DNA of 63,841 bases, filler included, from Basidiobolus ranarum (Eukaryota), in assembly GCA_040143965.1 (NCBI GenBank). It is 25 parts of 25 records of this genome, joined end to end, with 100 filler letters (N's around TTAATTAATTAA, not from the genome) between each part and the next. Parts side by side here need not be neighbours in the genome. Positions count along the whole stretch, not along the records: positions 17,961 to 20,422 come from JASJQH010003314.1; 24 more parts are not named here. One strand, 5' to 3'. Each line of letters opens with the position of its first letter. Positions within the stretch are counted from its first letter, which is position 1. Positions 4,033 to 61,786 of the stretch are shown here, in pieces. Below the pieces are notes generated by a model that was given only the letters and a program-made list of their open reading frames with translations, ran no database searches and was not told where the DNA came from. A program made the position numbers and the translations under genes.

Positions 4033-5035
4033 ATGACTGAACTACCAAAAATGAGATATACGAGCTTCGGCTCCACTGGGCTCAAGGTAGAGTAATCCAG
4101 CCTTAAGTATTGGTTGACAATCGACGATATCAGACTAACTTGAGTTTCATCTGTAGGTTTCGAAACTGTGTCTAGGGTGTATGTCTTTTGGTTCTTCTGA
4201 ATGGCAGCCTTGGATTTTGAATGAAGAAGAAGGGAAGAAAATTGTGAAAAGAGCTTGGGATCTCGGGATCAATTTCTTCGATACTGCTGGTATTATCGTC
4301 AGTAAACAGCTCAGACACTTATTTATATTAAATAATCGCTCGATTTCTCTTTAGATGTCTACTCGAATGGAGAGAGTGAACGAGTTCTGGGTCTTGCTAT
4401 CAAGGAGCAGAAAATCCCTCGGGAAAGCGTCGTTATAGCTACCAAATGCTTCTTTCCTGTCTCGGATGACGTTTCATTCCAGACTTTAGCACAAGGAAAG
4501 GATGATGTCAAACTTCTCAACAAACGGGGATTAAGTCGGAAACATATTTTCGATGCAGTCAAAGCCAGTTTAAAGAGACTTGATGTCGAATATATTGACC
4601 TTTATCAGATTCACCGATGGGACTACGATACTCCCATTGAAGAGACCATGAAAGCCTTACATGACTTGGTTCAACTTGGTTTGGTTCGATACATCGGTGC
4701 CAGTTCCATGTATACTTGGCAATTCGCAAAAGCCAATGCTATTGCTGAACGTAATGGTTGGACAAAATTCGTTTCTATGCAAAACTTCTATAATTTGTTA
4801 TATCGTGAAGAAGAGAGAGAGATGATACCTTACTGCCTTGATCAAGGTATAGCCTGTATACCTTGGTCACCTTTAGCTCGTGGCAGATTGACAGGAAAAG
4901 ATCGAACCACCACCCGTAGTCAAAGTGATCATGCCCATCAAGCAGCATTTGGCTTAGATGCTGATTCTAAAATCATTGACCAAGTAGTCGAGATTGCTGA
5001 GAAAAGACAAGTTTCTCCCGCTAGAGTTGCACTTG
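4033..5035 (+). CDS. Aldo-keto reductase (aryl-alcohol dehydrogenase-like), 2 introns, 3' truncated
   Basis: Exons 4033-4086, 4157-4289 and 4355->5035; GT-AG introns 4087-4156 and 4290-4354. Spliced protein has GLKVSKLCLGCM, GINFFDTADVYSNGESE, VIATK, YIDLYQIHRWD, RYIGASS and PWSPLARG. Confidence 0.96.
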
Positions 5036-5135
5036 NNNNNNNNNNNNNNNNNNNNNNNNNNNNNNNNNNNNNNNNNNNNTTAATTAATTAANNNNNNNNN
5101 NNNNNNNNNNNNNNNNNNNNNNNNNNNNNNNNNNN

Positions 5136-7203
5136 CAAGATGTTATAGGTGAGCATTGAAAGGAATAAGGTACGACCAGTTGGGCACACACTCACTGTAC
5201 GAATGAATGAAGGGAAGATGGACATTGTGTAAATGGCAAAACCTAATCCAGCAACGAATCCTGGCGTTTCGGGAACATAGTACAAAGTCATAACGGAAGC
5301 AGTACCGAATGCCCACCATACAAAGCTAGTAACAAAAACTCTATGTGAAAGAGAGTATCCTACGGCCAAGGCAGCAATTACCAAAGCACCCCAAGGAACG
5401 GGGGCAGGCTCGTGGTGAGAGTATCCACGAGCGATCCATCGAGAAACAATAGAAGAGTCGGAGAACATACTATGAAGAATGAAAAAGACGGCACCAAGAC
5501 CTACAGAGACTCCACTCCAGCGAACATTGGGGTTAGGAGTAATGGAGCGTTTTTGGACAGGCTGTTTGTTTGAGAAATCCCTGATAATAAGGGCAAGGCA
5601 AGCCAAGACACCAATCAGAATACCAGTGGCGTTAGCACCTCCATTCTCTGCTCTCATAATGGGCCAGATAGGGTTGTTACTCTTCCACATAGCTTTTGCG
5701 ACAGTGTGGGCAATCAGGCCAAGTGATAATGAACCAATATCTCTTTCTAAACGACCAGTCTTCTCGTATTCATCGTACCATGTAGCGGCCCAAGTAGTCA
5801 AACTGATACCACAACCAATAGCAGCGTAGATAAGTCTATCAATAGGATCTTGCCACAAGTATGAAGCAACACCAATAAGGGAAATCAAGTGGAAGAAACC
5901 TCTGTAAGAGCGTACGGTATTGCGTACAAAAGAGATACCGAGAACGACTGGGACAAGGGTAATGAATAGGAAGGCTTCATATCCAGAAATACCCATATAC
6001 CACAATGGGAAGTACCAAATAAGTAAAGGTAAAGCAGTGAGCATCGACCAGAAGACGAAACCAAGATAGACATCAGCACTGAAGAAAATAGCCTCAGATA
6101 ACCACCCAGGCTTGGCGGCAACAGTTTCCTTCTTCAAAGGGCTCTTTTCAACGGTACTATAAGCGCCATCACGGTCTTGCTTCTCCATAATGTTTGCATC
6201 TAACACTTGAATGTGAAGAGTTTGGAAATCATATACGGAGACACCATCAAAGGCAATATCATAGAAAATAAGAGACCACTCGAGGAAAGCATAGATAGTA
6301 TAAGCACCGGGAACTTTTTCAACCTTATGTTGGATAAAGAAGTAGATCAAAGGAGCCAAGGTAAAAATAAACAATCCGCAAATAGTTTTACGAAGTCTAT
6401 TTGCTTTAAGAGCAACGGCTGGTTTGGAGCTGAGTAGACTGGAAGAAGCAGTACGGATGGTTCCAAACATATATGGGAAAGTCAATAGAATGTATAAAAT
6501 CATTCCTATATCATGAATCATATGATCATCGGTAGAAGTGATATACACGAAAACACCGCAGGAAACAGTACGAACGACACCAATAGCAAGAAGAATCTTC
6601 TTGAACAAATCGGATGTTCCTTGATGTTTAGAGGTGACATAATACCACAAAAATAGAAGCAAGAATCTAGGAGCTAAACATAATATTAACTTTTAAGTTT
6701 CAGTTTCAATATTTTAAGATGATACTTACTTGCGGTTGCGGCGATGAGAATCTGGAAGACAGGTCTGGCAGGATATCTATCCCCAACAGTGGCACTTACA
6801 CTGGGAAACCATTCCTGTTTAAAAATATTTAGAATACTATGAATACAAGAAAAATGAATTATAGGCTTACATCTGGATATCCAAAATATTCATTTTGAAC
6901 AATTTTCAAGTAATGTGTTTGACAAGCGACAACCAGAGCAATCAGGAACGCGCCTAAAAAAGATTAAGTTAATCTACCAACATCTTCATCCGTAGAACAA
7001 TAGAATAGACATACCACAAGCAAGAAGGGAGTGGGTATATGAGATATATTTGCCGCTGAACTTTTGAAAAACATAAGGATTAAACGGAGATTTGAAAAAA
7101 GATAGTACCATATACTTACACCCCCAAGCACAGCTGGGTTTGTTACTTCAGCGGCTTCAGTAGGGACAAGTGGTTCACGTTTTGAGCGTCGCGAAGCAGT
7201 CAT
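5136..7203 (-). CDS. CWH43: CWH43 / PGAP2-interacting GPI lipid-remodelling membrane protein, 4 introns, 3' truncated
   Basis: ATG at 7203. Four short GT-AG introns give [56 protein letters not shown], then [30 protein letters not shown] and NNPIWPIM, all typical of Cwh43. Confidence 0.93.
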
Positions 7204-12833: not shown

Positions 12834-13322
12834 CTATTTGCCAAGTGTCAGTGCTATTCAAAATTTCAGATGTTTAGCAATTTTTCCACCGTTAGTTTGC
12901 TGGTAAAGCATATTGATGTTGTTGAGTTATGTCTGATCAGTCAAGTATGTGCATATATAGAGACTAAACACAACAAGATTCTTGTATTTTTTGATTATCA
13001 TTATGGCTGGAACACAAAGCCTAAAATATCTAAATAAAGGCATGCATATTAATTTGAATTCCTACAGCAGTAAACCTAGTAATTTGCCGTTCAAAAATTA
13101 TATTTTTGCAAAAATTGCTGGATATTGAATAGTGCATGCTGAATTTGAGGATCAATATTTTAACATGTATGAATACCGCTAAGATACTGTCAAGAAACCA
13201 CCGTCATATCATCAAAATCCCTGGCAGAATGCAAGCCAACAATATTGTGACAGTTCTTGACGATTTTGCTATTTTGGAGGGTGGATCCAATCCAGATCAA
13301 ATTGATTTTATTTTTGTTAGGG
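12834..13322 (+). mobile_element. CACTA/EnSpm-like element end, terminal repeat ...TTTTTGTTAGGG
   Basis: Reverse complement of 23332-23800. Confidence 0.85.
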
Positions 13323-13504
13323 GTATGCTATGCCTATATTGCTAGTAAACCTTAACTTAGTCTGTCAATGTAAGGTACTTTGTCATTTCATCTATACAAG
13401 CAACTGATTGGCCTTAGACTTTGTGTTCAGATGCAGTCACCATACTCCATAATTTCCTCTTTTGGGAATTACTGCTGGTACCACAAGTCACTAGACTTTC
13501 AGCA
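13323..13504 (-). repeat. LTR-like family B fragment (tRNA-bearing repeat; tRNA part cut off by a CACTA insertion)
   Basis: Matches 23105-23285 and the reverse complement of 19105-19285. Ends CTTTCAGCA against gypsy integrase sequence. Confidence 0.85.
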
Positions 13505-14709
13505 GATATATCCTTGTCTGCCAAATATGATACAATTCTGGTAATTGTTGACTATTTAACAAAGATGGCCCAATTTGTGCCCTACAACAAGTCAATTGAT
13601 GCAAAACAAACAGCAGAATTGGTAACTCAAAACATCTTCCACCTATATGGACTCCCTGAAACTATCATCTCTGACCAAGGACCTCAGTTTGTGATACAAG
13701 AGCTTTGCTGATAGGAAAAGAAAGCCAAGACCAGATCTCAAGCCAGGAGATCATGTTTGGCTACCCTGGAAAATTATTGAAACCACTAGACCTTCTGGTA
13801 AACTTGATCATAAAAGACCAGGGCCTTTTTAGATTATTAAGCAAATCAACTTCAAAGCCTTCTGCCTTGAACTCTAATCACATTTCAAAGTCCACAATGT
13901 ATTCCATGTGTCTCTCCTAGAGCCACATGCCAGAAACACCTTCCAGGGGCAATCCATTGACCCACCCCCAGCAATCCAAGTGGAAAACATACTGAATACA
14001 AAAATAGCAAAATTCTAGATTCCAGAATTTATCAATGTAAATTGCAATATTTAGCGGACTGGAAGAGATATTCAACAAATGATCAATCATGGGAGCAAGC
14101 AACAAATCTTTCCAATTCTAAGAAACTTTGCCAAGAGTCTCATGAAGCCTACCCAGAAAAACCTGGCCCTATGATGTCTGGAAGACATCATTGAAGGAGA
14201 GGATACTGTCATGATTCTGATCTTGGCATACTGATCCACTGCAAATAGAACTGTTCTATTATTAGATTTTAACATCATATCTGCTATGCCATCCTTTCTT
14301 GACAATCTTGTGTTAGTTCATTTGGGTTACCTTATATTGCAGTAATGTTCTTTGGAACATTTCACAAAATCTAACCATTCATGTCATCCCACACATAGTG
14401 TATTTCCACCAAGACCTTCCATGTAAGGTCACCTGATCATCCTTACATCATCCCTCCTTTGAATTGGTCCTTATAGTCCCTAACACCCCAATACTAGAAC
14501 TTGCCACAGTATATTCCCTATTCAGTATATCTTGTTTTACCCTGCAATATCTATATAACCTCAGTCTGATCAATGCCCATTATCAATAAACATTCTTGCC
14601 AAATTATCTTCCATATCTAGTCTTGTCTTGTGGTCTACACCCAAGAACTCTCCTGCCTTCTAGCCTCTTGTTATTTATTCCAGTCCTTGTCCAGTTCCTT
14701 ATTGTGATA
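13505..14709 (+). mobile_element. Decayed Ty3/gypsy chromovirus 3' end: integrase, chromodomain, PPT, 3' LTR (14207-14709)
   Basis: VIVDYLTKMAQF and GLPETIISDQGPQF; chromodomain remnant KILDSR..QYLADWKRY..SWEQATNL..YPEKPGP; PPT GAAGGAGAGGA before TGTCATG. Confidence 0.88.
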
Positions 14710-17960: not shown

Positions 17961-19104
17961 GACCCAAACCACCTTGATATGGTCTGTAAGCTGCCACTAA
18001 CGCTGCCTGAGCGCAAGTAAGCCCCTAGGGTAAGGCACAGTCAGAACGATATCTATTTGGAATTGCTGTAATATTCAGAATGCATAGTAGATCAAAGTAT
18101 TTACACCAAAGCAACCAGAAATTTGATCAATATCTTGGCACTATATGTGGATGAATTGATCATGGCCACAAATAGTCTAGAAGCACTTAATCAGACTAAA
18201 AGCAATTTATCAAGCAAATGTCTGATGACTAACATGGGGGAATTGAGTTATTTTCTTGGAATCCAAAATAAGAGAGATATACCTAGTCAAAAAATCATGC
18301 TGAATCAGTCTATATACATCCTACACATCCTAAAATGCTTCAACATGGAGAATAACATGCCTGTATCAATACCAATGGATCCTAATGTCAAATTAATCAA
18401 AGCTTTATCCATTTTGGCCTCAAATGACCCAAATCAAAGCCATGAGTCCACTGATCAATCCATGGTTGGTGGCTTGATGTAAACAGTGGTTGGAACACAT
18501 CCAGACATTGCTATGGCAGTGAAACTGTAAGCCAATAACTCCAAAATTCAGGATCTAAGCATAAAACTGTAGTAACAAGAATGTTCAGGTTCTTAAGAGG
18601 AACAGTAGATTGAGTTCTGGAATACTCTGGCACTTCTGATGTACAAAATATTTATGGCTATAGTGATGCTGACTGGGGAAGAAATCTTGATGATAGTAGA
18701 TCCACAACTGGGAATCCTTTTCTCTATGGTAATGGAGCCATAACTTGGAATAGTCAGAAGCAACCAACTGTAGCACATTTCACTACAGAAGCAGAGTAAC
18801 ATGCTGCCTCTGCTACTACACAAGAAGCTATGTTGTTAAGGAAGTTTTTTACAGACTTAGGATTCATACATAAATACATGATTACTTTATTTGAAGCTAA
18901 TCAAAGTTGAATTTCATTTGCTAAAACCCTGCATTTCATGCTAGAACAAAACATATATATATTAGGCATCACTTTGGTAGAGAAATAATAGAGAATGATA
19001 TAATTGAACTTGTCTATTGCCCTACTTAAGTAACAATTGCTGATATCTTAAGCAAACCTTTGGCTCAAGCACAATTTGAATTATAAGATATAAGTTAGGC
19101 CTGA
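17961..19104 (+). mobile_element. Decayed Ty1/copia RT and RNase H
   Basis: LALYVDELI, MGELSYFLGI, GYSDADWG, RSTTG, FHARTKHIYIRHHF, IADILSKPL. Confidence 0.92.
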
Positions 19105-19355
19105 TGTTGAAAGTCCAGTGACTTGTGATTCAAGAAGTAATTCCCAAAGAGGAAAATATGGAATGTGGTGACTGCATCTGAACACAAAGTCTCAGGCCAA
19201 TCAGTTGCTTGTATAGCTGAAATGCCAAAGTACCATACATTGACAGAATAGGTTAAGGTTCCCTAGCAATATAGGCATAGCATAGAAGGACTGGTAGCTC
19301 AGTGGTTAGAGCACCTTGCTAGAGGTGCCAGGTTCAAATCCTGGCCAGACCAATA
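19105..19355 (+). repeat. LTR-like family B element (TGTTG...CAATA) with an internal tRNA-derived sequence
   Basis: Sharp TGTTGAAAG boundary shared with two other copies. The 3' end is inferred from CAATA (probable decayed CAACA) and from the copia frame resuming as ATT TCT CCC TAA. Confidence 0.7.
19288..19352 (+). pseudogene. tRNA-like sequence, 65 nt, about 8 nt missing from the anticodon arm
   Basis: GGACTGG/CCAGACC acceptor (6 of 7 pairs), D arm GCTC-AGTGGTTA-GAGC, T arm CCAGG-TTCAAAT-CCTGG; A box and B box present. Confidence 0.85.
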
Positions 19356-19719
19356 TTTCTCCCTAAATAATTTGAATACTTGAGAGAAATAAAAAATATT
19401 TTTTTCACTGGGAATGTTGAAGTTTGATAAATAGCAACTTTTTATTTAGTAGTTAGTTTATTCATATGACAAGAGTTTAAAACTCAATTCTGCCATTTAA
19501 AAAATGTGTGCTTGTTGCTCTGATTGATAGAAATATCAAGCAGATCACTTTTACCAATTTTCATTACTTTCTCAAAATTTCTTCAAATCACCTGATATTT
19601 TCACCCATGCATAACAGGCATGTTTTTTACAATCTCAGCATGTCCAATAGCTCTATTTTACAGTAAACCTTAAATTATAAACTTTCAATCCAACAAAACT
19701 GAAGTGTCAAGTTAACAAA

Positions 19720-20422
19720 TCTAAAACTTGTACAAATCACTTTCAATTCCACTAAATACTTTTCTCACTAAGTCATGTAAACATGAAGCATCAATAGAAT
19801 AACATTGACAAGTGCTTTCCACTGGTACCGGAACTTCAGAATGCTGTACTTGAGCTACAGCAACATGATGATCCCTCTGTCCATTATCATATGGGGTTTC
19901 AATTAATCCCACACCACACATACAAACATCACTATGCCAACATGGCCAAGCAGAATATGTGCTGGACCATTAAGCCTACACAATGACCCAAAATTGCTTG
20001 GGAACATGAAAGTAGAAATCTCATAGGAAAACCAGCAAACCACAGGATTCCAAATGTCAGAGCTGCTGTCACTTACTCTGATGATGAAAGGTTTAACAAT
20101 TTGGAAACTGAGTGGAAACTTGCCTTAAATCATCTTGATTTGGGCTAATTGTGCAAAAGCCTAAGACCAGTTTTTCTTTGTTGAAATTAGGTAAATCATC
20201 ATAATTAGGACTGAAGTTCTGTATGAGAATGGACAGAGGGAGCAGCATGTTGCTGTAGCTCAAGAACAGCATTCTGAAGATCTTGTATCATTGTTGAGTG
20301 ACTCTCTTACTATTGACTAGTTGCTTCCAAACGCTGCATGATTTGCAATATTGCAGCGTTATTGCTTGTCATGGCCTGTATAGCAACTTCATAGTTTTTA
20401 CTTATGATTGCATACAAATCAT
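19720..20422. mobile_element. Scrambled CACTA-like fragments (transposase and ORF2 pieces in both orientations)
   Basis: Match 41990-42020, 31740-31950 and 31890-32090. Confidence 0.7.
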
Positions 20423-20522: not shown

Positions 20523-22780
20523 GATGGAGGTTGCAGAGTTCAAAACAACATTTCAGGACATAATGGCAAGAGTAATCAACAGAGGTGTAAAGGAAAAAGC
20601 AAGATAGTTTATTGAATTAGAAGATATTCCCAAAGGCAAATTGGAGCAGTCCAGACTGTTGCAGAGATGTAACAGATCACTCCAAAACAAAGAGACTCCT
20701 GACAGGGTATCTATTTTACAAGAAGAATCCACACAGCTCATCACCAGAATTGAAGTAACAGCTCCGGCAAGAGCAAGAGCCCAATGAGTTGGTTGATCAG
20801 CTAGTAGTAAACATTGACAGCAATGCCTGCTTGGAAGAGTCCACAATGTTTCTCACATTTTTCAAGCCACCAGAAGGACATACCTTTCACTTTGTTGAAT
20901 GAAGATCTGACACCTGGGAGCAATCTACCAAGACAGCAATCCATTACAATGCATACCCTCACAAGACCAAGACAACTAGTGTCTGAGAGAGATAGTGAAG
21001 CTCTTACTGAACTTGAAGAAGCCACAACAGTTGAACACATACCTCAAGATAGTCAATAAGCTCCAACACATTCTGTCATGCAACAGAGGTCACAGCAGCC
21101 AGTTAAAAGAGATGAAGCTTCTACCATGGTTGAAGAGGCAAGAACTGCCAAATACAAACCTCAAGATACACAACTTGCTTCAACATGTACTGGAAAGCAA
21201 CCATGGCAATGGCCAGTCAAAAGAAATGAAGCTTCCACTGTTGTTGAAGCAGGATTAACCACCAAACACCAACCACAAGGTAGACAACCTGCTCCAACAC
21301 ATACTGCCATGTGACCATGGCCATGGCCAGTCAAAAGATATGAAGCTTCAACTGTGGTTGAAGAGGCAGGAACTGCCAAACACAAACCTCAAGGTAGATG
21401 ACTTACTCCAGCACATACAGCCATGCAACTGTGGTCATGGCCAGTTCAAAGAGATAAAGATTCTACTGTGATTGAAGAAGAAATAATTGTTGAGCACAAA
21501 CCTCCAGGTAGAGGACTTGCTCCAACATGTACTGCCATGTGACCACGGTCATGGCCAGTCCAAAGAGATGAAGCTTCTACCATGGTTGAAGAAGAAGCAA
21601 TAATTGTCAAGCATAAACCTCAAGTGAAACATTCTGGGTTGATGCATAGAGCTGCATGCCAGCAACAATGGCTTGTTGGCCCATTAAGTGAAGGCTCCAC
21701 ATCTGAAGAAGAGACTGTAGACACAAACAAACCGCAAACTAGATGGGATGAGCCAATGCATATCAGAGCAGATCAACCTCAAGCCACAACTCATGCTGGC
21801 CAAGGCAGAGGAACTTCAGCAGGATCAAACCAACCAACTCAGTGCAGAGGTTCAGGCAAAGTCCTTTCCATGGAAATATCAAGGAGAAAACAAAAGTAAC
21901 AGAAGCAAATCTTCATGTACTGCTTTAAACCTAGGCAACTGCTGAATACTCTTGTTAATACTTATGTTATCCTATCATCACTGTTTAGCACATCATGCAA
22001 AATTGATATTGATTGCAGTTAAATATAGCTTAAATCACTTTAGTTGGATCACAATTGCTTATGTTAGTGTGCAATCATCATATATCAAAAAAATCAATGA
22101 TAGCCTATTAATACAAGCAATTTCACTACAATTGAATCAAAAATATCTATCAATAATAAGCTTGCACAGCTGTATTGGCTTAATATGGCTTAATCCGTGC
22201 ACATTCTCACCCAATTAGAAGCTTACGTGATTGAATGAATAATTTGCTGATTTTAAAATGATGAATTAAGCCATCCTGATCACTACTATTATACTGCAGA
22301 TTGATCCATCATCAAGTACTGTGATTTGTCAATGGTGTGCCAGAATTACTGGTGTTTCATAATGCAGGAGCCATTGGCCCAATTGAAAATCAACATACTG
22401 TGTTAGTTAGGGAGAAATGATTGGCCTAAAAACTTCTAAATGTCTTGGTCATATATTTGATTGAGTAAGTGACAGTATAAATTGTTTATAGTTACACATT
22501 CAGTAATTTGTAAGTTACAAACTAGGGGATGAACTTGCTTTGTCAGTTACCCAAAATCTTAATTTGGCAATATTAAATCGGGTAACCTGGTACAGGCAGG
22601 CATGATATCTCCAATAAAATCATTGTGTCTGATAGTGGTGGGATAGTGCCATATTGAGCATTATAGTGCCCAATTGAGTGTTATAGGATCCAGCCATGGT
22701 AATAGACAAATCAAGCCAGATGGTGTACTAGCATGCTGGATTGAACAGCACAATCTGACCTGGTCCAATGGAAGAAGTCT
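20523..22780 (+). mobile_element. Harbinger-like element, ORF2 half with ~6x 114-bp coding repeat, ending in a terminal repeat
   Basis: Collinear with 44753-45868. Repeat marker GATGAAGCTT and variants at 21111, 21225, 21339, 21453 and 21567. Ends AATGGAAGAAGTCT, close to AATGGAACAAGTCC. Confidence 0.75.
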
Positions 22781-23082: not shown

Positions 23083-23285
23083 AACCACTGAGCTACCAGT
23101 CCTTGTATGCTATGCCTATATTGCCAGGGAACCTTAACCTAGTCTGTCAATGTATGGTACTTTGGCATTTCAGCTATACAAGCAACTGATTGGGCTTAGA
23201 CTTTGTGTTCAGATGCAGTCACCATACTCCATATTTTCCTCTTTGGGAATTACTGCTTGTACCACAAGTCACCAGACTTTCAACA
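23083..23285 (-). repeat. LTR-like family B copy including the 5' part of the tRNA-like sequence
   Basis: 23083-23102 AACCACTGAGCTACCAGTCC is the reverse complement of GGACTGGTAGCTCAGTGGTT; ends CTTTCAACA. Confidence 0.9.
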
Positions 23286-23331
23286 TAAAGGAATCAACTC
23301 ACATTGCAGATTGCAGGCTGATACAGTGACT

Positions 23332-25542
23332 CCCTAACAAAAATAAAATCAATTTGATCCGGATTGGATTCACCCTCCAAAATAGCAAGACCATCAGTGA
23401 ACCATCACATTATTGGTGGCTTGCATTCTGCCAGGGATTTTGCTGATGTGATGGTGGTTTCTTGATGGTATCCTGATGGTATTCATACATGTTAAAGCAT
23501 TGATCCTCAAATTTGGCATGCATTATTCAATATTGCGCAATTTTTGAATGGCCATTACTGGGTTTACTGTAGTAGGAATTTGACTTAATATGCATGCCTT
23601 TATTTAGATATTTTAGGCTTTATATTTCAGCCATGATGAGAATCAAAAACAGAGGAATCTTGTTGTGTTTAGTCTCCACATATGCATATACTTGGCTGAT
23701 TAGATATTACTCAACAACATCAATATACGTTACCAGCAAACTAACAGTAGAAAAATTGCTAAACATCTGAAATTTTGAATAGCATTGATGCTTGGCAAAT
23801 AGCTGACTCTTGTTAACATTCACAATGAGGATAAGATCCTGGATTTTGGCGAGTTTCTGTAAAGAATTCAGCCAATATATCCGCAGCTTTTAGTGAAGAA
23901 ATGTCCTGCCACAAGTAGATATGTCATGGCTTGAATATATTACCCCATGGCTAAAACAATAGTACTGCATATCTTGATCTATCTCACCAAGAAGTGTGTC
24001 TAGAGGCTTTCCTAGGAATACCATAGATTATCACATAAGTAAATTAGTCTGATTATAGAGGTACTCTCTGTGTGTCCATGGATTGGGCTTAGTTGCTGCT
24101 ATTATGCTCAAACAATGCAGAAACCTGTGAGCACATTGAACTCTGGAGTCTCCTTAACTGATCACATTACATTCATCACTGAATATGCTGATGCATTGTT
24201 AATCAGTTTATCATGTGGTAATACTGACAATTTCATGCAGAGCATCATTTTACTGCAGGTGTGCTCCAATGGGAACACCGAGAATGTATAGCAAGGGCCT
24301 ATAATCTCTAAGCATTGTGAAAGATGCAGCAGGGAATGTATTGAATACCTGCATAGGCTTGGTCTATCTTCTTTAAACCTGTAACAAAGTTTTTCATGTC
24401 CAATTACAAAATCTTTGCCAATTGCTTTATCTGCCTGAGATCTGCCAATGTGAGTTGATGCCATAAGAATATATTAACAATTCTGACAAACAACTCCCAG
24501 TGTTGCCAACACTTATCAGACAGAAATCTTTTCAAAATTCTACTTAAATAAATACAATTCCAATGCTTCCAGTCTTTGCATTTGAATAAATGGCTAGACG
24601 AGTGGATTTTGATTGGAGTCCTGGTAAGATATGATGGTATCTTGATGTTTTCAAGCATTTTCACAATCAATTCAAACTTTGATCCTATATCAAATGGTGC
24701 AAATGTATTGAATTTTCACTATATAACTGAGTAAGCAGTATTCAAATGTTGTTGAATAGTAAGTTCATCATGCCTAATGGGAAGCTCTGGCTCCAGCTAA
24801 TCCCATGTAGCAATATAACATTACGCTTATGGCTAATACCAAGTTTGATGTTAGTTTGACTATTTGGTAAATTGATATCAGTGATCATGTTGAAATCTGA
24901 CCGGGCTCTTGATGGTAAAATCATGAAGTTTAGTGTTGTATTGGGATAGTAGTAAAGCATATGCCTGTTAGAGTAAACTCCATTGATTTGACAAAATCTA
25001 CAGCAAGATAGCACATTGTGCCTGCTCAAAACTCCAAATTTACTGATGGCAGGAGTGTCACCAACATGTTGAATAGTAAGTTCATCATGCCTAATGGGAA
25101 GCTCTGACTCCAGCTGATCCCCCTTAGCAATATAATCTTAGGCTTACGGCTAATACCAAGTTTGATGTTAGACTGACTATCTGGTGAAATGATATCAGTA
25201 ATCATGTTGAAATCTGGCCGGGCTCTTGATGGTAAAATCATGAAGTTTAGTGTTGTATTGGGATAGTAGTAAAGCATATGGCTGTTAGAGTAAACTCCAT
25301 TGAATTGACAAAATCTACAGCAAGATAGCACATTGTGCCTGCTCAAACCTCCAAGTTTACTGATGGCAGGAGTGTCACCAAAATATACAATGATATTAGC
25401 TTTAATAAAGTATTTACCCATCTGAACCCCTTTAGATAACCATTCAAATTCCTCAATCAAAGGCTCCAAGAAGCTATCTATAAGCACTGGTGATTTAGGT
25501 CCAGATATGATGGATAGTATCAAAATATTATGACTCTTATAC
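23332..25542 (-). mobile_element. CACTA/EnSpm-like element: tnp2-type transposase 3' half and terminal repeat
   Basis: ILSIISGPKSPVLIDSFLEPLIEEF, GDTPAISKL, CRFC, FKCKDWKHW, IHSLLHL..GPCYTF; terminus CCCTAACAAAAATAAAATC at 23332. Confidence 0.88.
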
Positions 25543-25642: not shown

Positions 25643-28102
25643 AAACAAACTAACATGTAGAATGTGTTAAGGAAGGTCTCAGGAACATGTGTGCAAAGTT
25701 TGGGGCTTCTTTGAAAAATCTATATATCTGAGAACTTCTAAGTTGGTAAAAATGCTGTAAGTAAATTCTAATTGAGAATATTGGATAATATCTTAGTGAA
25801 ATATAAGATAACTGAGCACTAAACTATATATGACTATATAGGTGTTTAGGCCATGCTAGTTTCAACACTCTTCTCAACTAAATAGTCATATAAACTAATC
25901 CTAATAAAGGTCTAAATTTCTCAAATTTCTATCTAGCTAATGGCTTAATTGATATATCTGCAATCATGCCTTCTGTAGCATAATAATTGAGCCAATAAAT
26001 TGATTCCCTATAGTCTCTCTAATGAAGTGATGATTAATATCTATATATCTGCTTCTATTACAAAACATGGGATTTTTAGCCAATTTGATACAACTTTGAT
26101 TATCTTGAAATATTGTAATTGGTGAATTTTGAGAATAAGCTAAATCTGTTAAGAGTTTTCTTAACCATATTGCTTCTTTTGCTGCTTCAAAAGCAGCCAT
26201 GTATTCTGCTTCTGATGTTGAAAGTGCTATGGTTGGTTGTTTCTTTGAATTCCAAGAAATAGCTCCATTGCAGCAAAGAAATAAGTATCCTGTGGTAGAT
26301 CTCCTGTCTTCAATATAGCTTCCCCAATTTGCATCTGAATATCCTATCAGATCAAAGTTTGATCCAGAGTATGTGTATTTTAAGCACCGATCCACAGTAC
26401 CTTTGTAACATCTGAAAATCTACTTAACTGCTATGATTTGATTGGATCCATCACTTTGAAGATATTGGCACATAACTCCCACAGAATATGCAATATCTGG
26501 CCATGTTCTAACCATGATATACATAAGCTACCAACCATTGATTGCTAAGGAAATTTTGGCTTTTGTTTGAATCAAAAAACATCAGATTTGAGCCATTTTT
26601 ATTCAAGTCAAGATTTGTCTACATTGGGGCAGATACTGAATTACATTCTTCCATTTTAAGCTTCTTTAGTATATCTAAGATATACATAGTCTGGTTTAAA
26701 GTTATTGCTTTGGTACTTCTCTCTAACTTAATTTGATTCCAAGATAGTATGTTAGTTCACCAAGATCAGTCACTTTAAATTCAGCAGATTAGCTGGATTT
26801 GGTTTTCTCCAAAGTCTTCAAGTTCTTAGTTACTATAATAAGGTCATCTACATATAAGGCTAATAGAACTGGGTTTGTCTTATCTGGCCTGAAGTAGATA
26901 CTATAGTCTGCATCACTCATTTGGAATTTGAGTGTTTCCAAAAAAGTGTTTATCTTGCTATTCCAAGCTCTTGGAGATTGTTTTAAGCCACAGAGTGTTT
27001 TCTGGACTCTGCAAGCTTTTTTAGGTTTTGGTAGGTCCACAAATCCATCTGGCTGGTCCATATAGATCTCTACAGCAAGCTCACCATTCAAAAAAGCATT
27101 TTTAACATCCATTTGATGTATAACAAATTGATATTTAACTGAAATTCCTAAAATCAATCTGACTGAATAAGACTATGCTACAGGAGCAAGAGTTTCTGTA
27201 TAATCTATTCCTGGTGTTCAGGAATAGACTTTGGCTACTAGTCTAGCCATGTACCTTTCTATATTGCCACCAGAGTTGTACCTATTTTTAAACCCCTGTT
27301 GGCAGCCAATTGATTGTCTATCATCCGGTAAGTTGGTTAAAGTCCAAGTTTGATTATCAATCAAAGCCTCATACTCATCAGCCAAGGTAGATCTCCAAAA
27401 TCTCTTGTGAGGGTCTTCAAGGCCTCTTTAACAGTCAGGGGTTCATGCATTTGAGCTGTGCAGGTATTGGCCTAATTTTGGGACTCAATGATATGGTAAT
27501 CAGGCCTATTTCTAATCCAATTTGATTTCCTGGTTTGTGATAAAGGTACAACAACTTCTGGCATTGTATTGGGCACTTCAGTAGGAAAAATATGGGTTGA
27601 AGGGTACTTAGGAGTGCTATTTTCTTCAATGTTTTACTTTGAATCAATTTGAAAAATTAGATTAGAAGAAAATTGCTAATTGTTATCACCTGAGGTGATT
27701 TAGGGTGAAAATATTTCATTTTTATGAAACAAAACATCCCTGGACTTGATTAACTTGTTGATTTTGGTATCATAGAGTCAGTAGGCCTTAGTTTGAGTAA
27801 AATAACCCAGACATACTCATTTCTGACTTTTTGGATCAAATTTAGACCAATTTTTGGTCATAATTTTGATATAAGCAATGCATTCAAAGATCCGCAAATG
27901 TTTTACATCAGGTTTTGCTCAAAATCAAGCTTGAAATGGTGTAGAGTTAGACAGACTTATAGTGATACTCCTTTTCTTCAAATATACAGTGGTAGCAACA
28001 GATTCTGCCCAAAAGTTATGAGATAAATTTTGTGCATTTATCATGGATCTTGCCATTTCTATTATAGTCCTGTTAGCTCTTTCAGCAACTCCATTTTGTT
28101 GA
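25643..28102 (-). mobile_element. Decayed Ty1/copia element: integrase end, RT, RNase H, PPT, 3' LTR (25643-25867, family A)
   Basis: [56 protein letters not shown] precedes TGTTGAAAC on the minus strand. Confidence 0.95.
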
Positions 28103-39534: not shown

Positions 39535-40887
39535 TCACTCCAGTAAGATAGTATTACTATCGTTTTCACTCCTAGGACCTTTGTTTCTATTGCTCTTTTT
39601 TCTCCTTCTAGGCTTCGACGACTGGGAACTAGACTTGGAGTCTGTGGATATGTTGGGTTGAATACGACTAGTACGATTTTCATCACTAGTAGGTGGAGTT
39701 ATGGGTTCCGCTTTCGTGCTAATTTTACCTCTGGAGCGTTTATTCGATTTAAATGACTTTTTTACGACGTTGCTAGGCGCCTGGTCACTTACATGTAGCC
39801 TTGTCTCATGGCTCCTATTGAGGTCTGCAGGGTTCTTAGCTTTAGTATTGTTGCCGTTTGGATTTCGACTTGTACTATCCTTTTGACCAACGCCCAAAGT
39901 CTTTAATTTATCTATCAAATCGTCAATGTTATTTGATGCGGGATTCTTAACTTTCCGTGGTGGCTTGGATGCCTCTACACCATTGCTTTTTTGAGGTTTC
40001 ACCGAGTTAATGACAGCCACGGGTTTGACATCTTTTCGTGTTGATAAACCAGGCTGCAGTTGCTCACTCGGAATAACCTCCGCATAGCCTGAATGTAGTA
40101 TAGGCTCACTCACACTAAAAGGGTTTTCTACTACCATCTGACGTGTCTTAGCATTCTTACGAGTTGATGCTTTAGCAGACACTACGTTGCGATTTTTTTG
40201 AGGCTTCACCAGATTGTTGTTAGCTATAGGTTTACTTTTATCTTTTCGCGCAGGTAGATGTTGCTCACTTGTAATTACCTCGGCATAACCTGAATATATC
40301 ATAGGCTCATCCATATCAAAAAGATCTTCTACTGCCATTTGGCGTGTCGTGGCATTCTTACGAAGTGATGATTTAGTAGACTCTATGCTGCGATGTTTCT
40401 GAGGCTTCATCAGGTTGTTGTTAACTACAGGCTTGCTCTTATCATTTCGTACAGGTTGATGTTGCTCACTTGTAATTACCTCCGCATAGCCTGAATATAG
40501 CATAGGTTCATCCATACTAAAAGGATCTTCCGTTGCTTTTCGATGAGTTTTGGTTTTGCTACGAGGTGATGGCTTAGCAGACTCTACATTGGGACCTACT
40601 GATGATTTTACAGAGTTGTTATCAGTTACAAGCTCAGCGATAAATCTTCAGGTAAATATAATAAGTTTTTGTTGCTTACTCAAAATCGTACTCGCGTACC
40701 CAGTATATGCTACAGGTTCATCCATACTAAAAGGATCCTCCGTTGCTTTTCGATGAGCTTTGGTTTTGCTACGAGATGATGGCTTAGCAGACTCTACATT
40801 GGGACCTACTGATGATTTTACAGAGTTGTTATCAGTTACAAGCTCAGCGATAAATCTTCAGGTAAATATAATAAGTTTTTGTTGCTT
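39535..40887 (-). CDS. Ser/Lys/Asn-rich tandem-repeat protein (67-70 codon units), 5' truncated, probable 54-nt intron at 40646-40699
   Basis: 326-aa ORF with three MDEP..YSGYAEVI..EQ units 201 bp apart. The frame continues upstream to a TGA inside a GT..AG segment; a near-identical 210-bp unit repeats to the contig end. Confidence 0.7.
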
Positions 40888-43542: not shown

Positions 43543-45868
43543 ATTGGGAAATACTCCAGGGAATGGAAGGAAATTAGAGTCTCTAAATCTTTTGTCCCAG
43601 GCATCTTCAACATCATTCATCAATGAAGCTAGATAATTCTCACTCACTTAAAGCCTGGTATGGAAGCTTCTCCCTCTTTTGCTACCATTAATAGTGCACT
43701 GAAATCTGATTTGACAATAGTTTTTGTAGTAACAAAACAAATTAACTAGCTGCTTTCTGGTAGGTATTGGAGTATATGAGCCACAGTATTCCTCAAATAT
43801 AGCCTCTAGGGTGATAATAGGAAAGCCAGTAGTTGCTTTTGGCTTAATGAGGAATAACCATTTAGAGTAGATGGAGAGCATTCATATATATCTTGTGTTG
43901 AGCTGGCATAATACTGAACAATCTGGTGCATGCAAGTTATTTAACCAAGAATTTCAATCATCATGGTAAAGTTCCCTACATTCTGTATAATAAAATTTCT
44001 GTTTGCATTTATTATCCTAATTATTTCAATTATGTGTAATTGCATGGAAATTATATAATAAGCTGCATCAGGAAAGTTAATCATAGTTCAATCAGAATCA
44101 ACTTATTTAGCATACTTATCAAAACGGCTCAAAGCGGAATGCATTATGCTTGATCACACTAAAGGAAATTAACTTTGACATTTAAACCAAAAATATAAAA
44201 AGATCCCTAATTCTGATTGAAACCAATAAAGTCTAACATCATAGATATATAGTAGTTATGGATCTTGTCAAAACAGATTCTTCCTGATTCACAACTTACT
44301 TTGGTATAGGAAACCACCACTTCCAAAATTTCATGTGCGCAGTCAAATGAAGGTGTGGGTGGCACAAAGCAGTGCATGCCTAATGATTTTACAGATGCCC
44401 AGGTATCCACTATGAGTTCTTGCTTGGATATATGGGAGTTATTGATAAACTTGACAGAAGCCGGAGAAGGGGGCATTAGACAAAAGTGGAAGCAACTTTC
44501 AACTCTGCTTTGAAGAGAATACTATATCTTCATGCTTTCAGAAGTCTGCAAGAAAATATACAATAAGACTCATGAGGATTGAAAATGTGAATTGAGAAAT
44601 AGGAATTTTGATTTTGAGTCTGCAAAGACACAATAGCAATTGCACTTTTGCTTGTATGGACCAGAAGCAACTGTTGCAGCCTCAATTTTAGAGACAAAAG
44701 ATGTTCTAAATAGATATCTACCACTACTCAATGAGACTTTGCAGCAACTGTTGATGGAGATTGCAGAGTTCAAAACAACATTTCAGGACACTATGGCAAG
44801 AGTAATCAACAGAGGTGTAAAGAGAAAAGCAAGACAATTTATTGAATCAGAAGATATTCCCAAAGGCAAATTGGAGCAGTCTAGACCATTGCAGAGATGT
44901 ACTAGATCACTCCAAATCAAAGAGACTCCTGACAAGGGAATTATCTCTCAAGAAGATTCTACACAACTCACCATTAGAATTGAGATAATACCTCCGACAA
45001 GTGCAAGAGCCCAACAAGTTGATTCATCAGCTATTAGTACATATCAACAACAATGCCAGCTTGGAAGAGTCCTTGATGTTTCTCCCAATTTTGATGAAGA
45101 GCAAGCAGTTGATGAAGAAACAGAAAGATAACAGCCTGCATTCTCACTCATCTTAGCATGCAACTTACCTGATTCAACCAAACCAACCAGTGAACTTTTT
45201 ATATCTGGAGAGAGTCAGCTCCAAGGAGCATGCCACCAGAAAGATATATTGGTTTAATACTTACTATTACACAATAGCAACAAAGGCCAACCACAAGAAT
45301 TATTGAACCTTCCACTTTGTTGGATGAAGATCTGACACCTGAGAGTGATCTACTAAGACAGCTATCTGTTACAATGCATACCCCCATGAGACCAAAACAA
45401 TGGTGTTTGAGAAAGATAGTGAAGCTCTTACTGAGCTTGAAGAAGATACAACTGTCAAACACAAACCTCAAGGTAGACAATATGCTGCAAAGTGTGCCAC
45501 CATGCATCAGAGGTGACAGTGGCCAGTCAAAAGAGATGAAGCTTCTACTGTGGCTGAAGAGGCAAGAACTGCCAAACGCAAACCTCAAGGTGGATGACTT
45601 GCTCCAAAACGTACTGCAATGAAACCATGGCAACAGCCAGTTGAAAGAGATGAAGCTTCAACTATGGTTGAAGAAGCAATAACTACCAAACACACACCAC
45701 AAGGTAGACCACTTTCTCCAACACATACTGCCATGCAACTGTGGCCACAGCCAGTCAAAAGAGATGAAGCTTCCACTGTGGTTGAAGAAGCAATAACTGT
45801 TGAGCACTATCCTCAAGTGAGACATTCCAGGTTGACACATAGAGCTGTGCCACAGCAGCAATGCTTGG
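43543..45868. mobile_element. Harbinger-like element centre: transposase 5' end (minus, start ~43881) and divergent ORF2 (plus) with ~4x 114-bp repeat
   Basis: 43543-43569 overlaps 38276-38302 (FPGVFPN); 44753-45868 is collinear with 20523-21675. Confidence 0.75.
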
Positions 45869-45996
45869 TGTCATGATTCTGATCATGGCATACTGATCCA
45901 CTGCATATGGAACTCTTCTATTATTAGATTATGACATCATATCTACTGTGCCATCCCTTCTTGGCAATCTGGTGTCAGTTCATCCAGATTACCTTA
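45869..45996 (+). repeat. Gypsy LTR start inserted into Harbinger ORF2
   Basis: TGTCATGATTCTGATC.. matches 14207-14335. Confidence 0.88.
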
Positions 45997-46401: not shown

Positions 46402-48549
46402 GTATCACACTACAAGGTTGTATCAAAATAGTAAAATTGCTTGAGGAGGATTTACAAAAGTATGAAGGTAAAATGTGATGCAAGTATGCAGAAAGTGGCT
46501 TCAGAAAAACAACATTCAACTTGAAATTCAGTCTGGTGTTGACCTTGCAGATATCTGGGAATAACTTAATACAGAGTGGCACAATACTGCAGGGTATCTG
46601 CAAGATAGCTGGAAGAATGTTGATTGAGCAATGTTAATACAATGGTGAGCTTTGATGGAGATATTGATACAAATTTATGTTGGATATAAGCTAAACCTTG
46701 GGTATGAAGAACTCTATAAAAATCTTCACAATAATATATCAAACAAACTGGGGATTTCAGAGGTGAAAAATATGCTTTCAAGTGGTGAATATATAAATTT
46801 GAATTATGTTTTTTGTACATATGTTGATCCATAGTTCTCTGAGATTTTAGCCAATCATGTGCAACTATTTTTCAAAATCTTGAAATTTCACTGCTGAAAC
46901 TGAAAAAATTGATTAAAATTAAATCTAATTTGACAATTTCATGATGGTAAGTCCATGATTCATCCCAAATGGATTAAAATTGTGATGGTTTTCCTATGAT
47001 AACAATTCTCAAAATTCTTATAGGTTTATTCAGTAAGGGCTATTTCTGATCTGCTTTGATATCCTGGTTTGGGATAAATGTACTACACCAATGGGTGTTG
47101 TATTGAGCACTTCAGTAGGCAAATTCTTGGTTGAAATGTCCAGAGGAATGCTATTTTCTTCATTGTTTTGGTTGGAATCAATATATATGAATGGATTAGG
47201 AGAAAATGGATTTTTGTCACCATCTGGGTCATTTTGGATGAAGAGCTTTTATTTTCATTAAACAAAACATCTCTAAACTTGATTAAGTTGCAAATTTTGG
47301 TATCATAGAGTCTATAGGCCTTAGTTTGAGTACAATAACCCAGAAATATGTATTTCTTTATTTTGAATTAATTTTGCACAAACTTTTGGTCATAGTTTTG
47401 AATTAAGCAAGGCTTCCAAAAATCCTCAAATGTTTGATATCAGGTTTAACTTCAAACTAAGCCTGATAAGGAGTAGAGTTAGAGAGACTTCTAGTCAAAC
47501 TCTTATTGATCACATATACAGCTGTATCAGCAGATTCTGCCAAATAATTAGGAGAAAATGTTGTACATTTATCATGGATCTTTGCATTTCTATTGTAGTC
47601 ATGTTAGCTCTTTCAGCAACTCCATCTTGTTGAGGGGAATAGAGGGCAGTAGTTTCTCGCTTAATTCCATGAGCTTTGTAGAAGTGCTTAAATATTGTTG
47701 AAGTACATTCTCTAACACTATTAGTACATTTTTTCTTGATTATAGTTCAGTTTCAGTCTCAACATTTGTCTCAAAATCTCTAAATATGCAGAGAGCTTCT
47801 TTTTTCTTTCCTTAAAGTGGACCCAAGTGTTTCTTGTGTAATTGTCAATATATATGATTAAATACCTTTTTCTACCTAAAGATAAATTTGCATAGGTCCA
47901 TACAAATCTGAATCAATTAGATCTAATTTTTTAACAGATTTGAACCAGAGCTCTTGAACAGTTGCCTGGCTTGTTTTCCATATATACATATATATAGGAG
48001 ACTTTCCCAGAATTTGGAAGCAAACTGAGGTCCTCAGTTAGAGATGATAGTTTCAGGGAGTCCATGTAGGTGAAAGATGTTTTGAGTCACCAATTCTGCT
48101 GTTTGTTTTGCATCAATTGACTTGTTGCAGTACACAAAGTGGGCCACCTTTGTCAGATGGTCAATAATTACCAGAATTGAACCATATTTGGCAGACAAGG
48201 GTAGATCAGTTATGAAATCCAGGGATATGGATTTCCACTGCTGATCAGGAATTGAAAGTGGCTGTAGGAGGCCATAGGGCTGATGTATTGGAGTCTTCAC
48301 TTGAGCACAGGTATCACAGGGGGAAACATAAGTCTTGACAAACACAAATATTTTGGGCCACCAATAATCCCTGGATGCCAACATATATGATTTGGCAACA
48401 CCAAAGTGTCCTGCTAGTGGTGAGTCATGTCTTTCCTGCATGATTTTGAGTCTGGAAGTGTGGTCTGGAATGTAAAGGTGCTTCTTATAAAACAAGAGAT
48501 CATTGATGATAGAGAAATGGTGGTACAAGTTCAAGCTTGAGAGGTCTTT
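46402..48549. mobile_element. Mosaic: CACTA-like end (46402-~47024), copia integrase (minus, ~47030-47990), gypsy integrase (minus, ~47995-48549)
   Basis: Matches 30815-31442; PQQDGVAERAN and IDSDLYGPM; HDSPLAGHFG..YWWP..CDTC..ISLDFITDLP. Confidence 0.88.
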
Positions 48550-50471
48550 NNNNNNNNNNNNNNNNNNNNNNNNNNNNNNNNNNNNNNNNNNNNTTAATTA
48601 ATTAANNNNNNNNNNNNNNNNNNNNNNNNNNNNNNNNNNNNNNNNNNNNAATCATCACTTATAATGCAGGCTTGACTAAATATAATTGTCATTTTGCCAG
48701 CAATGATTTGACAAATTTCAGTGCAGGCATCCACATTGCAGTTGTGGGCCATTCTTTTGCATTTTACTGCAGATTACCCAGTTCATCAGGGGACAGTTGG
48801 TTCAACCAGTAAGAGACTTGATATTAAAAATTATCAGTTTCCCAAGATATTATCCAGAGTTAGTATAGTTACAATGCCCCAAGGGTTGGCTTCAAACTTT
48901 AATTACTATTGGAAAGGATTTTAGCTGCTAGTGCAATGTTTCCATTCAAGGATTCATGAGTTATGTTTGCTTGTGCATTTGAGCACAGGCAAAGTGAAAT
49001 AATCTGCTGTGCTAACAAAATGTAACAACAGCTTGCAGATAGCTGTTGAAGCCAAGATACAGGTTCTCAACAAGTGATGCTCTCTCATCATCTTCATATA
49101 CCATTTAAATCAGCAAACTAAACAACTATCTACCAAGTTTCAAATCAAGATCAGACCAATTTTAGTTTGCAGGAATTAGTCAAAAGCATTCAGTATATTG
49201 TGTAGAGCAAGCCCTGACAGGCCTCTATTGGATGAGATGAAAAACTTCAAACTCAGAATAGCTCTGTGATTAATGACTCTGATCAGAATATCTTTGTAAG
49301 AACTCCATTGTCAGAAATTCTCAGTTGTTTTTTTTACTCAATAGGTATCAATATATTGGCAATCATCAAACAGCATGTCAAACTTGTCCACACAAAGTCA
49401 TGTTGGGGAAATAATAATGTTGTAAAGCTCTTACAGCCCAACATTACACTATCTAAAAGCAGATTAACCTACTTTTTTGGAAGCAAGTGGTGAATATACA
49501 AATCTTTAACAATGCAAATAGCAGGATAAATTGATAAAACTGTGATGCTTTGCTAGTCATAGCTGCCTAGGAATTAGTTAAGTTGCATAATATTTATTAT
49601 GATCAAAAAACTAGTACTCTCAGTATATTAACATTATCCCCAGATCAGTATCCTTGGTATCAATAGTTATCAGTCATTGACATATCATTCAGTATTAGTC
49701 AGCAGTTATTGGATCCACCAGCAATTAGTCATGATAGTGTGATGGAAGTCTTAGGATCATATTCCATGGAAAGTTATGTTATAATATTGGCAATGCCATG
49801 TTCCAGTAGCCAGTAATAGTAGGTCACATGATTGTATATCCTCTGCTCTGATGGGACACACAATCATCTTGCCTGTGCCATCATCAAAGGTATCAGCTGA
49901 TTGTTGTGCCAGCCCTGGATGTCTTGGCTAAGAATTTTGCCCCCGATTATGAAAAAGCTAGATTCTGGTATAGGAATTGAATCAATAATCAGTGGATGAG
50001 TTATTTTCATCTAATCATTGAGTTTAGATATGAATACACATGTAGCTCCCTTGATTAACTTCAGTCCAGTCATGGTGAGCACAATACTAGCTTACCCAAT
50101 CCCCAGTAAATCTAAGATATTCAAGAATTATAACAATATTTTGTTGTTCTGTAACATAGTATTGATGAAAGTGTTTTGGTTGTTCAGAAGTAGTTTACAC
50201 AAGAAACTGATATGTGATTAAGTTACTCAAAATCTGCTTATTTGAATGCATCTAACTTACAATTTACTGCTGAATGTAATGGTGGAGTCTACTTGGATTA
50301 ATACAAGAATGCCTTCCATACATAGGTGAGAGTCTGACACCAGTTAGACAGGTTTTAAGATATAAGTACTGATTGGTAAATGTGATCTGATTCATATACT
50401 TATCGATAAGAGCAACACACTTTTTTAGTGCCAAGTTTGAGAGTGAAGCATTAAGAATAAGAATCAGCAAA

Positions 50472-50653
50472 GGACTTGTTCTCTGTGATAGTGCCAGATT
50501 GTGCTGTATATATCATATCAAATGAAGTATTCAAAAATTTATGAGGCATAATTTGGCACTATCTATCACCCTCTGGCATGTTCAAAGTAAGTCACATTCA
50601 CTCTAATATTTCTATCTGAGGTCCAATAAATCCTGGCACAATGGAACAAGTCC
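50472..50653. mobile_element. 182-bp MITE with GGACTTGTTC / GAACAAGTCC terminal inverted repeats
   Basis: Perfect 10-bp TIR, AAA on both flanks, internal GTGCCA/TGGCAC motifs. The interior recurs at 22781-22860 (reverse complement). Confidence 0.8.
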
Positions 50654-61395: not shown

Positions 61396-61453
61396 AGCGG
61401 TAGAATAACTGCCTTCCAAGCAGTTGGCCTGGGTTCGACTCCCAGCTAGCGCA
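61396..61453 (+). tRNA. tRNA-Gly(TCC), 5' truncated by the contig edge
   Basis: ACTGC-CTTCCAA-GCAGT anticodon arm; CTGGG-TTCGACT-CCCAG T arm. Confidence 0.92.
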
Positions 61454-61714
61454 CATTTATTTTCCTTTTTTATCAACTAAGCAACCATGGCAGATGGCTT
61501 TCAGGTCTATTCGAGAACAAGTTGCTTTTTAATCTCGAGTTTCTTTGGGTGATTTGGCAGCCTGCTCATATATTTACTTACTTGTGTGTCTACTTCAAGT
61601 TGAATTCATTTTGAAAATCGTAATGGCGCTGTGATGGTAGAAACAAACAAACTAAATCACAGCACTAGGTAATATATGATCAAATCAACATAATCTGACA
61701 TTTAGTATGAAAGT

Positions 61715-61786
61715 GGTTTCGTGGTGTAACGGTTAGCACCCAGGACTTTGAATCCTGTAATCCGAGTTCGATTCTCGGCGAGACCT
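61715..61786 (+). tRNA. tRNA-Gln(TTG)
   Basis: CAGGA-CTTTGAA-TCCTG; acceptor GGTTTCG/CGAGACC. Confidence 0.97.

Follow-up and report, generated by a model that had tools for sequence, protein, structure and literature searches.

RESULTS

Layout of the window and the R locus

The sequence that we analyzed (the window, 63,841 bases in total) consists of 25 separate contigs of Basidiobolus ranarum, 2446–2468 nt apiece, ordered by size and joined by 100-nt spacers of the form N44-TTAATTAATTAA-N44 (for example, 2469–2568 and 5036–5135). Because the contigs were concatenated, features that run across spacers and distances between contigs are meaningless. Our evidence base was this 61 kb window, protein databases, and one paper, Kojima 2024 (PMC10886601). 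The window is ~35% GC and dense with nested transposon debris. Host genes are represented by an aldo/keto reductase fragment at 4336–5034 (+) and, on another contig, by a CWH43/PGAP2IP-type membrane protein at 5136–6692 (−) that is 100% identical to the NCBI entry 'Protein cwh43, partial [Basidiobolus ranarum]'. Two contigs (20979–21594 and 45403–45904) have tandem repeats with a period of 114 nt, and a 201–210-nt period is found at 40053–40874 inside a 370-aa open frame, with units of the type ..MDEPM.YSGYAEVI.SEQ..

The locus of interest lies at 17961–19794 and holds the following features, in order:

17961–19104 (+): decayed Ty1/copia pol, 3′ part (RT end, RNase H, and C-terminal tail ..ADILSKPLAQAQFEL..), from the contig start up to R
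19105–19287 (+): R, copy 1, U3-like part of a putative LTR, 183 nt, starting TGTTGAAAG; its last 5 nt form the leader before the tRNA-like unit
19288–19352 (+): tRNA-like unit, 65 nt, ending ..GACCA; Rfam tRNA match with 8 nt of the anticodon arm missing
19353–19794 (+): Z, the flank downstream of the unit, which aligns to a paralogue, Z′, and holds a T7 run

Two further copies of R were found:

23083–23285 (−): R, copy 2, with R at 23285–23105, followed by the leader and by 20 nt from the 5′ end of the tRNA-like unit; contig end at 23083
13323–13504 (−): R, copy 3, with R positions 1 to ~182, starting TGCTG; truncated 5 nt short of the position of the tRNA-like unit

Three copies of R share a sharp 5′ end

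In pairwise alignments, copies 1 and 2 were 94.1% identical over 204 nt, copies 1 and 3 were 90.1% identical over 181 nt, and copies 2 and 3 were 92.9% identical over 182 nt. It is these 180–200-nt alignments that carry weight; the exact 11-mer by itself is weak, with 6 matches (≤1 mismatch) vs 2.2 expected. A conserved 26-mer of R yielded 0 matches in a metagenome scan. The 5′ flanks of all three copies differ, and the divergence sets in exactly at TG(T/C)TG, giving R the sharp TG start of an LTR. No T run of 4 or more is present inside R (19105–19287). The original prediction that the repeat occurs three times in unrelated contexts therefore stands as to the repeat, with three copies at 90–94% identity, but the 'contexts' are simply different contigs, because the window was made by joining separate contigs.

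Both of the additional copies are cut on their 3′ side. Copy 2 is silent on the remainder of the tRNA part because its contig stops at 23083, with an N spacer directly after. In copy 3, R is met at position ~182 by the terminus of another repeat, X; this accounts for the missing tRNA part, and consequently the 3′ end of R is not defined by this copy. On their 5′ sides, copy 2 has a non-pol flank, with a 1087-nt X copy in 38-nt inverted repeats 1–46 nt upstream, while copy 3 adjoins a gypsy-type integrase, Y, which it interrupts:

12834–13322 (+): the end of repeat X that truncates copy 3; terminus ..TTTGTTAGGG
23332–24418: repeat X, ~1087 nt; other termini at 13322, 8829, 33068, 54983, and 38303
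13505–13691 (+): Y, gypsy-type integrase fragment, interrupted by the 5′ end of copy 3

There are at least six copies of the one sharp X terminus in the 61 kb; six of them end at the same base with six different flanks. Two uninterrupted Y copies (starting at 37219 and 48207) run on upstream of the point at which copy 3 breaks Y, and Integrase_H2C2 was detected on the 48037–48549 copy. We considered X as an LTR of the gypsy element Y and rejected it, since the orientation of X relative to Y varies between contigs; likewise, X as a gypsy integrase N-terminus was rejected, given six copies that end at one base with different flanks.

Several other features of these contigs were observed. The X copy at 23332–24418, on the contig 23083–25542, is bracketed by the 38-nt inverted repeats (23290–23326 and 24425–24462), as if it were inside a palindromic mini-element, and X lies within 0–46 nt of two of the three R copies, which is commoner than X density predicts. 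On the contig of copy 3, a 249-nt inverted repeat (14207–14455/14709–14957, 88% complementary, with a 253-nt loop) is located directly before an X terminus, and related sequence is present at 45865–45996. Upstream of copy 2, on the same contig, an open frame at 25029–25541 (−) matches Transposase_21 (tnp2/CACTA-type) with an E value of 2.5e-7.

The tRNA-like unit lacks part of its anticodon arm

The unit at 19288–19352 matched the Rfam tRNA model with a score of 45.8 bits, compared to a gathering score of 29 (E = 1.4e-6 for the whole window). Its anticodon arm comprises 7 nt vs 15 in the Rfam model, and ARAGORN made no call for 19288–19352; the complete cloverleaf and anticodon of a functional tRNA gene were thus not found at these positions. 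The minimum-energy fold retains the acceptor arm (with one A-A mismatch), the D arm, and the T arm, together with a short hairpin, CACCU-UGCU-AGGUG. The energy z-score of this fold, at only −1.56, is unremarkable. A 65-nt tRNA-like sequence with a short, refolded anticodon hairpin had been predicted, and this description is upheld by the Rfam match and by the fold, the ARAGORN search being negative. With 8 nt of the anticodon arm lost, the module would be unable to decode.

By regular expression, we located TAGCTCAGTGG at 19295–19305, which we take to be an A-box-like motif, and GGTTCAAATCC at 19331–19341, presumably a B-box-like motif, both judged against consensus motifs. Relative to an ordinary tRNA gene, the A box and the B box lie 8 nt closer together, a spacing that TFIIIC may or may not tolerate and that counts against the explanation that we favor below.

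Among 8 other tRNA sequences in the window, the closest to the unit was Thr(AGT), and the 8-nt gap falls directly after the CTAG of the anticodon loop. Since a gap at this position fits such an origin, the unit probably descends from an A34-type tRNA such as Thr(AGT). The 5′ acceptor strand, which is present in copies 1 and 2, pairs at 6 of 7 positions with the 3′ strand in copy 1; because these strands pair, the unit is one piece and not an assembly chimera. We found no other copy or relic of the unit in the 61 kb window, even at E up to 0.5, and a 27-mer over its deletion junction gave 0 matches in a metagenome scan. Canonical tRNA genes of the window include a cluster at 61396–63841, on one contig, with 7 genes in 2.4 kb and 230–370-nt spacers: a partial tRNA at the contig start, Gln(TTG), Asp(GTC), Pro(TGG), Met(CAT), and Arg(TCT) on the plus strand and Glu(TTC) on the minus strand.

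There is no T run inside the unit; the first is the T7 at 19399–19405, 47 nt into the flank. Beyond 19352, neither an A-rich nor a simple tail follows, and the shared unit begins 183 nt upstream, so the arrangement is not the head and tail of a SINE. We also considered the unit as a copy of a primer tRNA. This was rejected, since by the standard scheme of reverse transcription such a copy would be antisense and outside the LTR.

A decayed copia pol ends 13 nt before R

The sequence before copy 1 contains a Pfam RVT_2 match at 18072–18482 (E = 9.7e-14), and by tblastn six of six full-length copia polyproteins aligned from the contig start to 19062–19092. In the longest of these alignments, with P0124, residues 963–1339 of 1351 were covered and the last HSP ended at base 19092. 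R, at 19105, begins 13 nt past the last pol-homologous codon, which is itself 12 residues short of the end of the 1351-aa polyprotein; a 3′ LTR would be expected to begin at this place. The pol at 17961–19104 has in-frame stops and changes frame near 18521 and 18925; this decay is compatible with the 6–10% divergence among the R copies. When the decayed 136-aa RT piece was used to look for homologues among longer proteins, there was no match, and the 151-aa piece of a sister family was used instead.

That sister copia family, on the contig at 25643–28102, has a pol that is 65–70% identical in nucleotides to the pol of copy 1, and it is followed by its own LTR (LTR′):

25643–25867 (−): LTR′ of the sister copia family, starting TGTTGAAACTAGC at 25867, after the pol end and the purine run GAGAAGAG; cut by the contig end
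46401–46097, 15506–15398, and 7817–7703 (−): further LTR′ copies, from the repeat comparison within the window

The four copies of LTR′ start TGTTGAAA(C/T)TAGC, and LTR′ as a whole exceeds 305 nt in length, each copy being cut by a contig end; one of the three further copies has a non-pol 5′ flank. R and LTR′ have only the terminal TGTTGAAA in common. Similarity between them past the first 8 nt was rejected, since 181 of 200 shuffles were equally good. The terminus of an LTR is the part that is recognized by integrase.

An LTR-like repeat had been proposed at this locus from the repeat itself. This assignment is now supported on a new basis: because copy 1 is preceded, at a distance of 13 nt, by the end of a copia pol, and because a sister copia family has at the same place an LTR′ that also starts TGTTGAAA, R is, as judged by sequence and position, most likely an LTR of this copia lineage.

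The stretch before copy 1 is a poor polypurine tract (15 of 25 nt are purines, and CCTGA adjoins R), and the ~30 nt that lie between the pol end (..LGL) and the LTR in the sister family are absent before R, which leaves room for R to be at the pol end by chance. Thus, it is conceivable that R and its tRNA-like unit are not the LTR of this copia at all. They could belong to a small, non-autonomous TRIM of the Helenus type, as its LTR, or represent a solo LTR, inserted by chance where a copia pol that is older and unrelated comes to its end. The very dense nesting of insertions in these contigs would suit such an event, and Kojima (PMC10886601) argues against the sharing of Pol III-type LTRs by autonomous partners. 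We nevertheless regard a chance insertion of this kind as quite unlikely: it would have had to land within 13 nt of the pol end, exactly where the LTR of the sister family begins TGTTGAAA, and the state of decay of the pol is compatible with the divergence of the R copies.

The tRNA-like unit is likely to move with R

The junction of R with the leader is identical in all three copies, and the junction of R with the 5′ end of the tRNA-like unit is identical in the two copies that are informative. Relative to copy 1, copy 2 has 12 mismatches in 203 nt and none within the 20 nt of the tRNA part. If copy 2 were a solo LTR that ended before the tRNA, its 5′ flank (CTTTA or TCTTA) would be expected again after R; in copy 2, it does not recur there.

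For the other side of the unit, we used a paralogue of the downstream flank:

50141–50556 (−): Z′, paralogue of Z, with neither R nor the tRNA-like unit beside it and no tRNA match on its contig

Local alignment of 19350–19794 with 50556–50141 (−) gave a score of 135 vs a shuffle maximum of 53, at ~60% identity. The homology of Z and Z′ extends left to ~19354, with modest significance, as 8 of 200 shuffles score equally well. R plus the tRNA-like unit showed no similarity to the sequence upstream of Z′ (95 of 200 shuffles were as good). Z at 19481–19666 (+) and Z′ at 50264–50512 (−) have an open frame in common, with residues ..KKCV.ALID..NQITFTN..SPM.GRH.., and could belong to a diverged gene family or an old transposon.

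Taken together, the sequences make it quite likely that the tRNA-like unit moves with R. Furthermore, given the shared junction, the lack of a free copy of the unit in the window, and the absence of both R and the unit beside Z′, the tRNA relic most probably forms the 3′ end of the LTR. The sequence ..GACCA at 19348–19352 fits the CA end of an LTR, with the boundary resting on the homology of Z and Z′ to ~19354 (8 of 200 shuffles); an LTR that ended at 19352 would obey the TG...CA rule. The 3′ end may be at 19352 (..GACCA) or, if CAATA is read as a decayed CAACA, at 19355. Several observations count against this assignment. The whole tRNA module is visible in one copy only; paired LTRs, a TSD, or a PBS were not seen in contigs that reach 2468 nt at the most; and the X insertion in copy 3 falls within 5 nt of the R/tRNA junction, which a true element boundary would explain as well. 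As to the original prediction, its proposal that the tRNA is a part of the element, based on the same offset in copy 2, agrees with both informative copies, which share the leader and 20 nt from the 5′ end of the unit. Its proposal that the tRNA is flush with the LTR end is retained in a weaker form, in that the unit reaches the 3′ end or stops only a few nt short of it, as the modest Z/Z′ boundary suggests.

An alternative is that R, at ~180 nt, is already a complete LTR and ends before the tRNA-like unit. The latter would then be an independent Pol III gene or pseudogene, or the head of a SINE, upstream of which an integrase like that of Ty3 or Ty1 has inserted the element repeatedly at the same nucleotide. 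Yeast Ty elements do target the upstream side of tRNA genes, similarity in copy 3 does stop 5 nt short of the tRNA position, and the contig of copy 2 breaks inside the tRNA-like unit, as one would expect if other genomic contexts exist. However, independent tRNA paralogues rarely have common leaders, and here the leader is the same in three of three copies and the tRNA 5′ end in two of two. In addition, an R-free copy of the unit was not found in the window, the 8 canonical tRNA sequences have no R or LTR′ within 1.2 kb, R in copy 2 is not surrounded by a TSD, Z′ has no tRNA at the homologous place, and the end of copy 3 is the terminus of repeat X rather than a free end of R. Repeated targeting therefore seems unlikely to us.

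The LTR could instead run on through Z and be longer than 250 nt, a possibility that follows from the modest significance of the left end of the Z/Z′ homology; the tRNA-like unit would then be the head of a SINE-like insert, internal to the LTR and not flush with its end. Z is itself repeated, the LTR′ of the sister family exceeds 305 nt, and insertion of a SINE into an LTR is the model of origin put forward by Kojima (PMC10886601). Set against this, Z and Z′ are ~60% identical vs 90–94% for the copies of R, the sequence upstream of Z′ is neither R-like nor tRNA-like, and the unit ends in CA, as LTRs do. We consider an LTR that continues through Z very unlikely.

DISCUSSION

A candidate copia LTR that ends in a tRNA-derived module

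The explanation that we favor, and that on balance is probable, is that R and the tRNA-like unit together (19105 to ~19352–19355, ~250 nt) constitute the LTR of a Ty1/copia-lineage family, cognate pol included. The case is built on three partial copies of R and is suggestive, not established. Copy 1 would most likely be a 3′ LTR, belonging to the decayed copia with the pol that ends just upstream, and copies 2 and 3 would be 5′ or solo LTRs amid debris of other transposons. In its last 65 nt, the LTR would consist of a tRNA-derived module, which retains its acceptor, D, and T arms together with the two internal boxes of a Pol III promoter and would sit in the R/U5 position, beside the expected PBS. 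For the proposal in the original prediction that the family may encode its own primer RNA, we found no support in the window: a search for sites complementary to the tRNA-like 3′ end (≤3 mismatches) returned only the unit itself, but no contig holds a junction between a 5′ LTR and an internal part.

Solely from the intact A- and B-box-like motifs, we infer that such an LTR could be driven by Pol III. Were the module active, transcription by Pol III would presumably begin in the 5′ LTR, a few nt before the module. In short derivatives without genes, the polymerase could then read through the internal part, the 183-nt U3 of the 3′ LTR, which is free of T runs, and the module again. Termination in flanking T runs would yield a terminally redundant template, as in the TRIMp3 model outlined by Kojima 2024 (PMC10886601). 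Full-length copies that bear pol would still need Pol II; because a 5-kb AT-rich coding element is implausible for Pol III, the module in those copies is probably a passenger.

A more far-reaching interpretation is possible, although quite improbable. Either a coding, autonomous-type copia of an early-diverging fungus would have a tRNA-derived unit as its whole R/U5, flush with the PBS, which would be the progenitor state of TRIMp3 elements, or RNase P/Z or a tRNA-like RNA would define or prime the genomic RNA. If true, either reading contradicts the expectation that Pol III-type LTRs are not shared by autonomous partners.

Small-RNA-bearing LTRs (Cassandra, Helenus, and Ajax) have so far been described only as tiny gene-less elements, for which neither an origin nor an autonomous partner is known. 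A pol-bearing element whose LTR includes a tRNA module would, if true, be a candidate parent of such small elements, and it would widen the range of small-RNA-bearing LTRs to Zoopagomycota. It would also warn annotators that tRNA-like matches in Basidiobolus may be parts of LTRs, and it would offer a simple test of Pol III promoter use in LTRs.

Comparison with known systems

Our search of the literature on tRNA-like LTRs, TRIMp3, and transposable elements of Basidiobolus turned up one directly relevant paper, Kojima 2024 (PMC10886601), which a 2026 paper on sugar beet merely cites, and no other description of such an element. That Helenus LTRs are tRNA-like had been stated in the original prediction, and the paper substantiates it: Helenus elements (TRIMp3) are described as non-autonomous LTR retrotransposons with tRNA-like A and B boxes in the LTR (PMC10886601). 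The hosts given there are Pucciniales, three Agaricomycetes, several animal phyla, and Selaginella, and the fungal families have 5-bp TSDs, depend on Copia, and in many cases resemble tRNA-Thr(AGT) (PMC10886601). According to the same paper, 'not a few' LTRs in Repbase have tRNA-like parts, the analysis was restricted to TRIMs of <1000 bp, and Pol III transcription is unproven for Helenus too (PMC10886601). The family that we describe may already be catalogued in Repbase or in Table S1 of that paper.

The likeness of our element to Helenus is threefold. In both, tRNA-derived sequence with conserved A and B boxes lies inside the LTR, where 'inside' depends in our case on the 3′ boundary; in both, the tRNA-derived part is unlikely to encode a working tRNA; and just as fungal Helenus is linked to Copia and is often tRNA-Thr(AGT)-like, the lineage here is copia and the closest tRNA is Thr(AGT). 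The differences concern size, host, and perhaps layout. Helenus is a gene-less TRIM of 311–1263 bp, whereas the sole complete copy here follows a copia pol of >1.1 kb and so would not be a TRIM, the internal side of copies 2 and 3 not being visible. The host here is a zoopagomycete, whereas the fungi named in the paper are Pucciniales and three Agaricomycetes (PMC10886601). Finally, our module probably lies at the extreme 3′ end of the LTR, which may set it apart from Helenus.

Cassandra, a plant TRIM, likewise carries a small-RNA gene with an internal Pol III promoter in its LTR, and the idea of a template made by Pol III applies to both. However, Cassandra has 5S sequence, is found in plants, and has a conserved terminator inside the LTR (PMC10886601), whereas here the sequence is tRNA-derived, there is no T run in the unit, and the T7 is 47 nt into the flank.

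Like a tRNA-derived SINE (SINE2), the unit resembles a tRNA-related head with A and B boxes that is unable to decode. In contrast to a SINE2, the repeat here is without a body or tail, and on the upstream side it continues for 183 nt beyond the head, as far as a sharp TGTTG boundary.

Finally, the arrangement recalls Ty1 and Ty3 of yeast: in a fungus, a copia-type element has a tRNA-like Pol III unit beside it. The Ty elements of yeast, however, target the tRNA gene, which stays outside the TSD, at a variable distance for Ty1 and at ~17 nt for Ty3. In our case, the copies have one and the same junction, and the unit apparently travels with the LTR.
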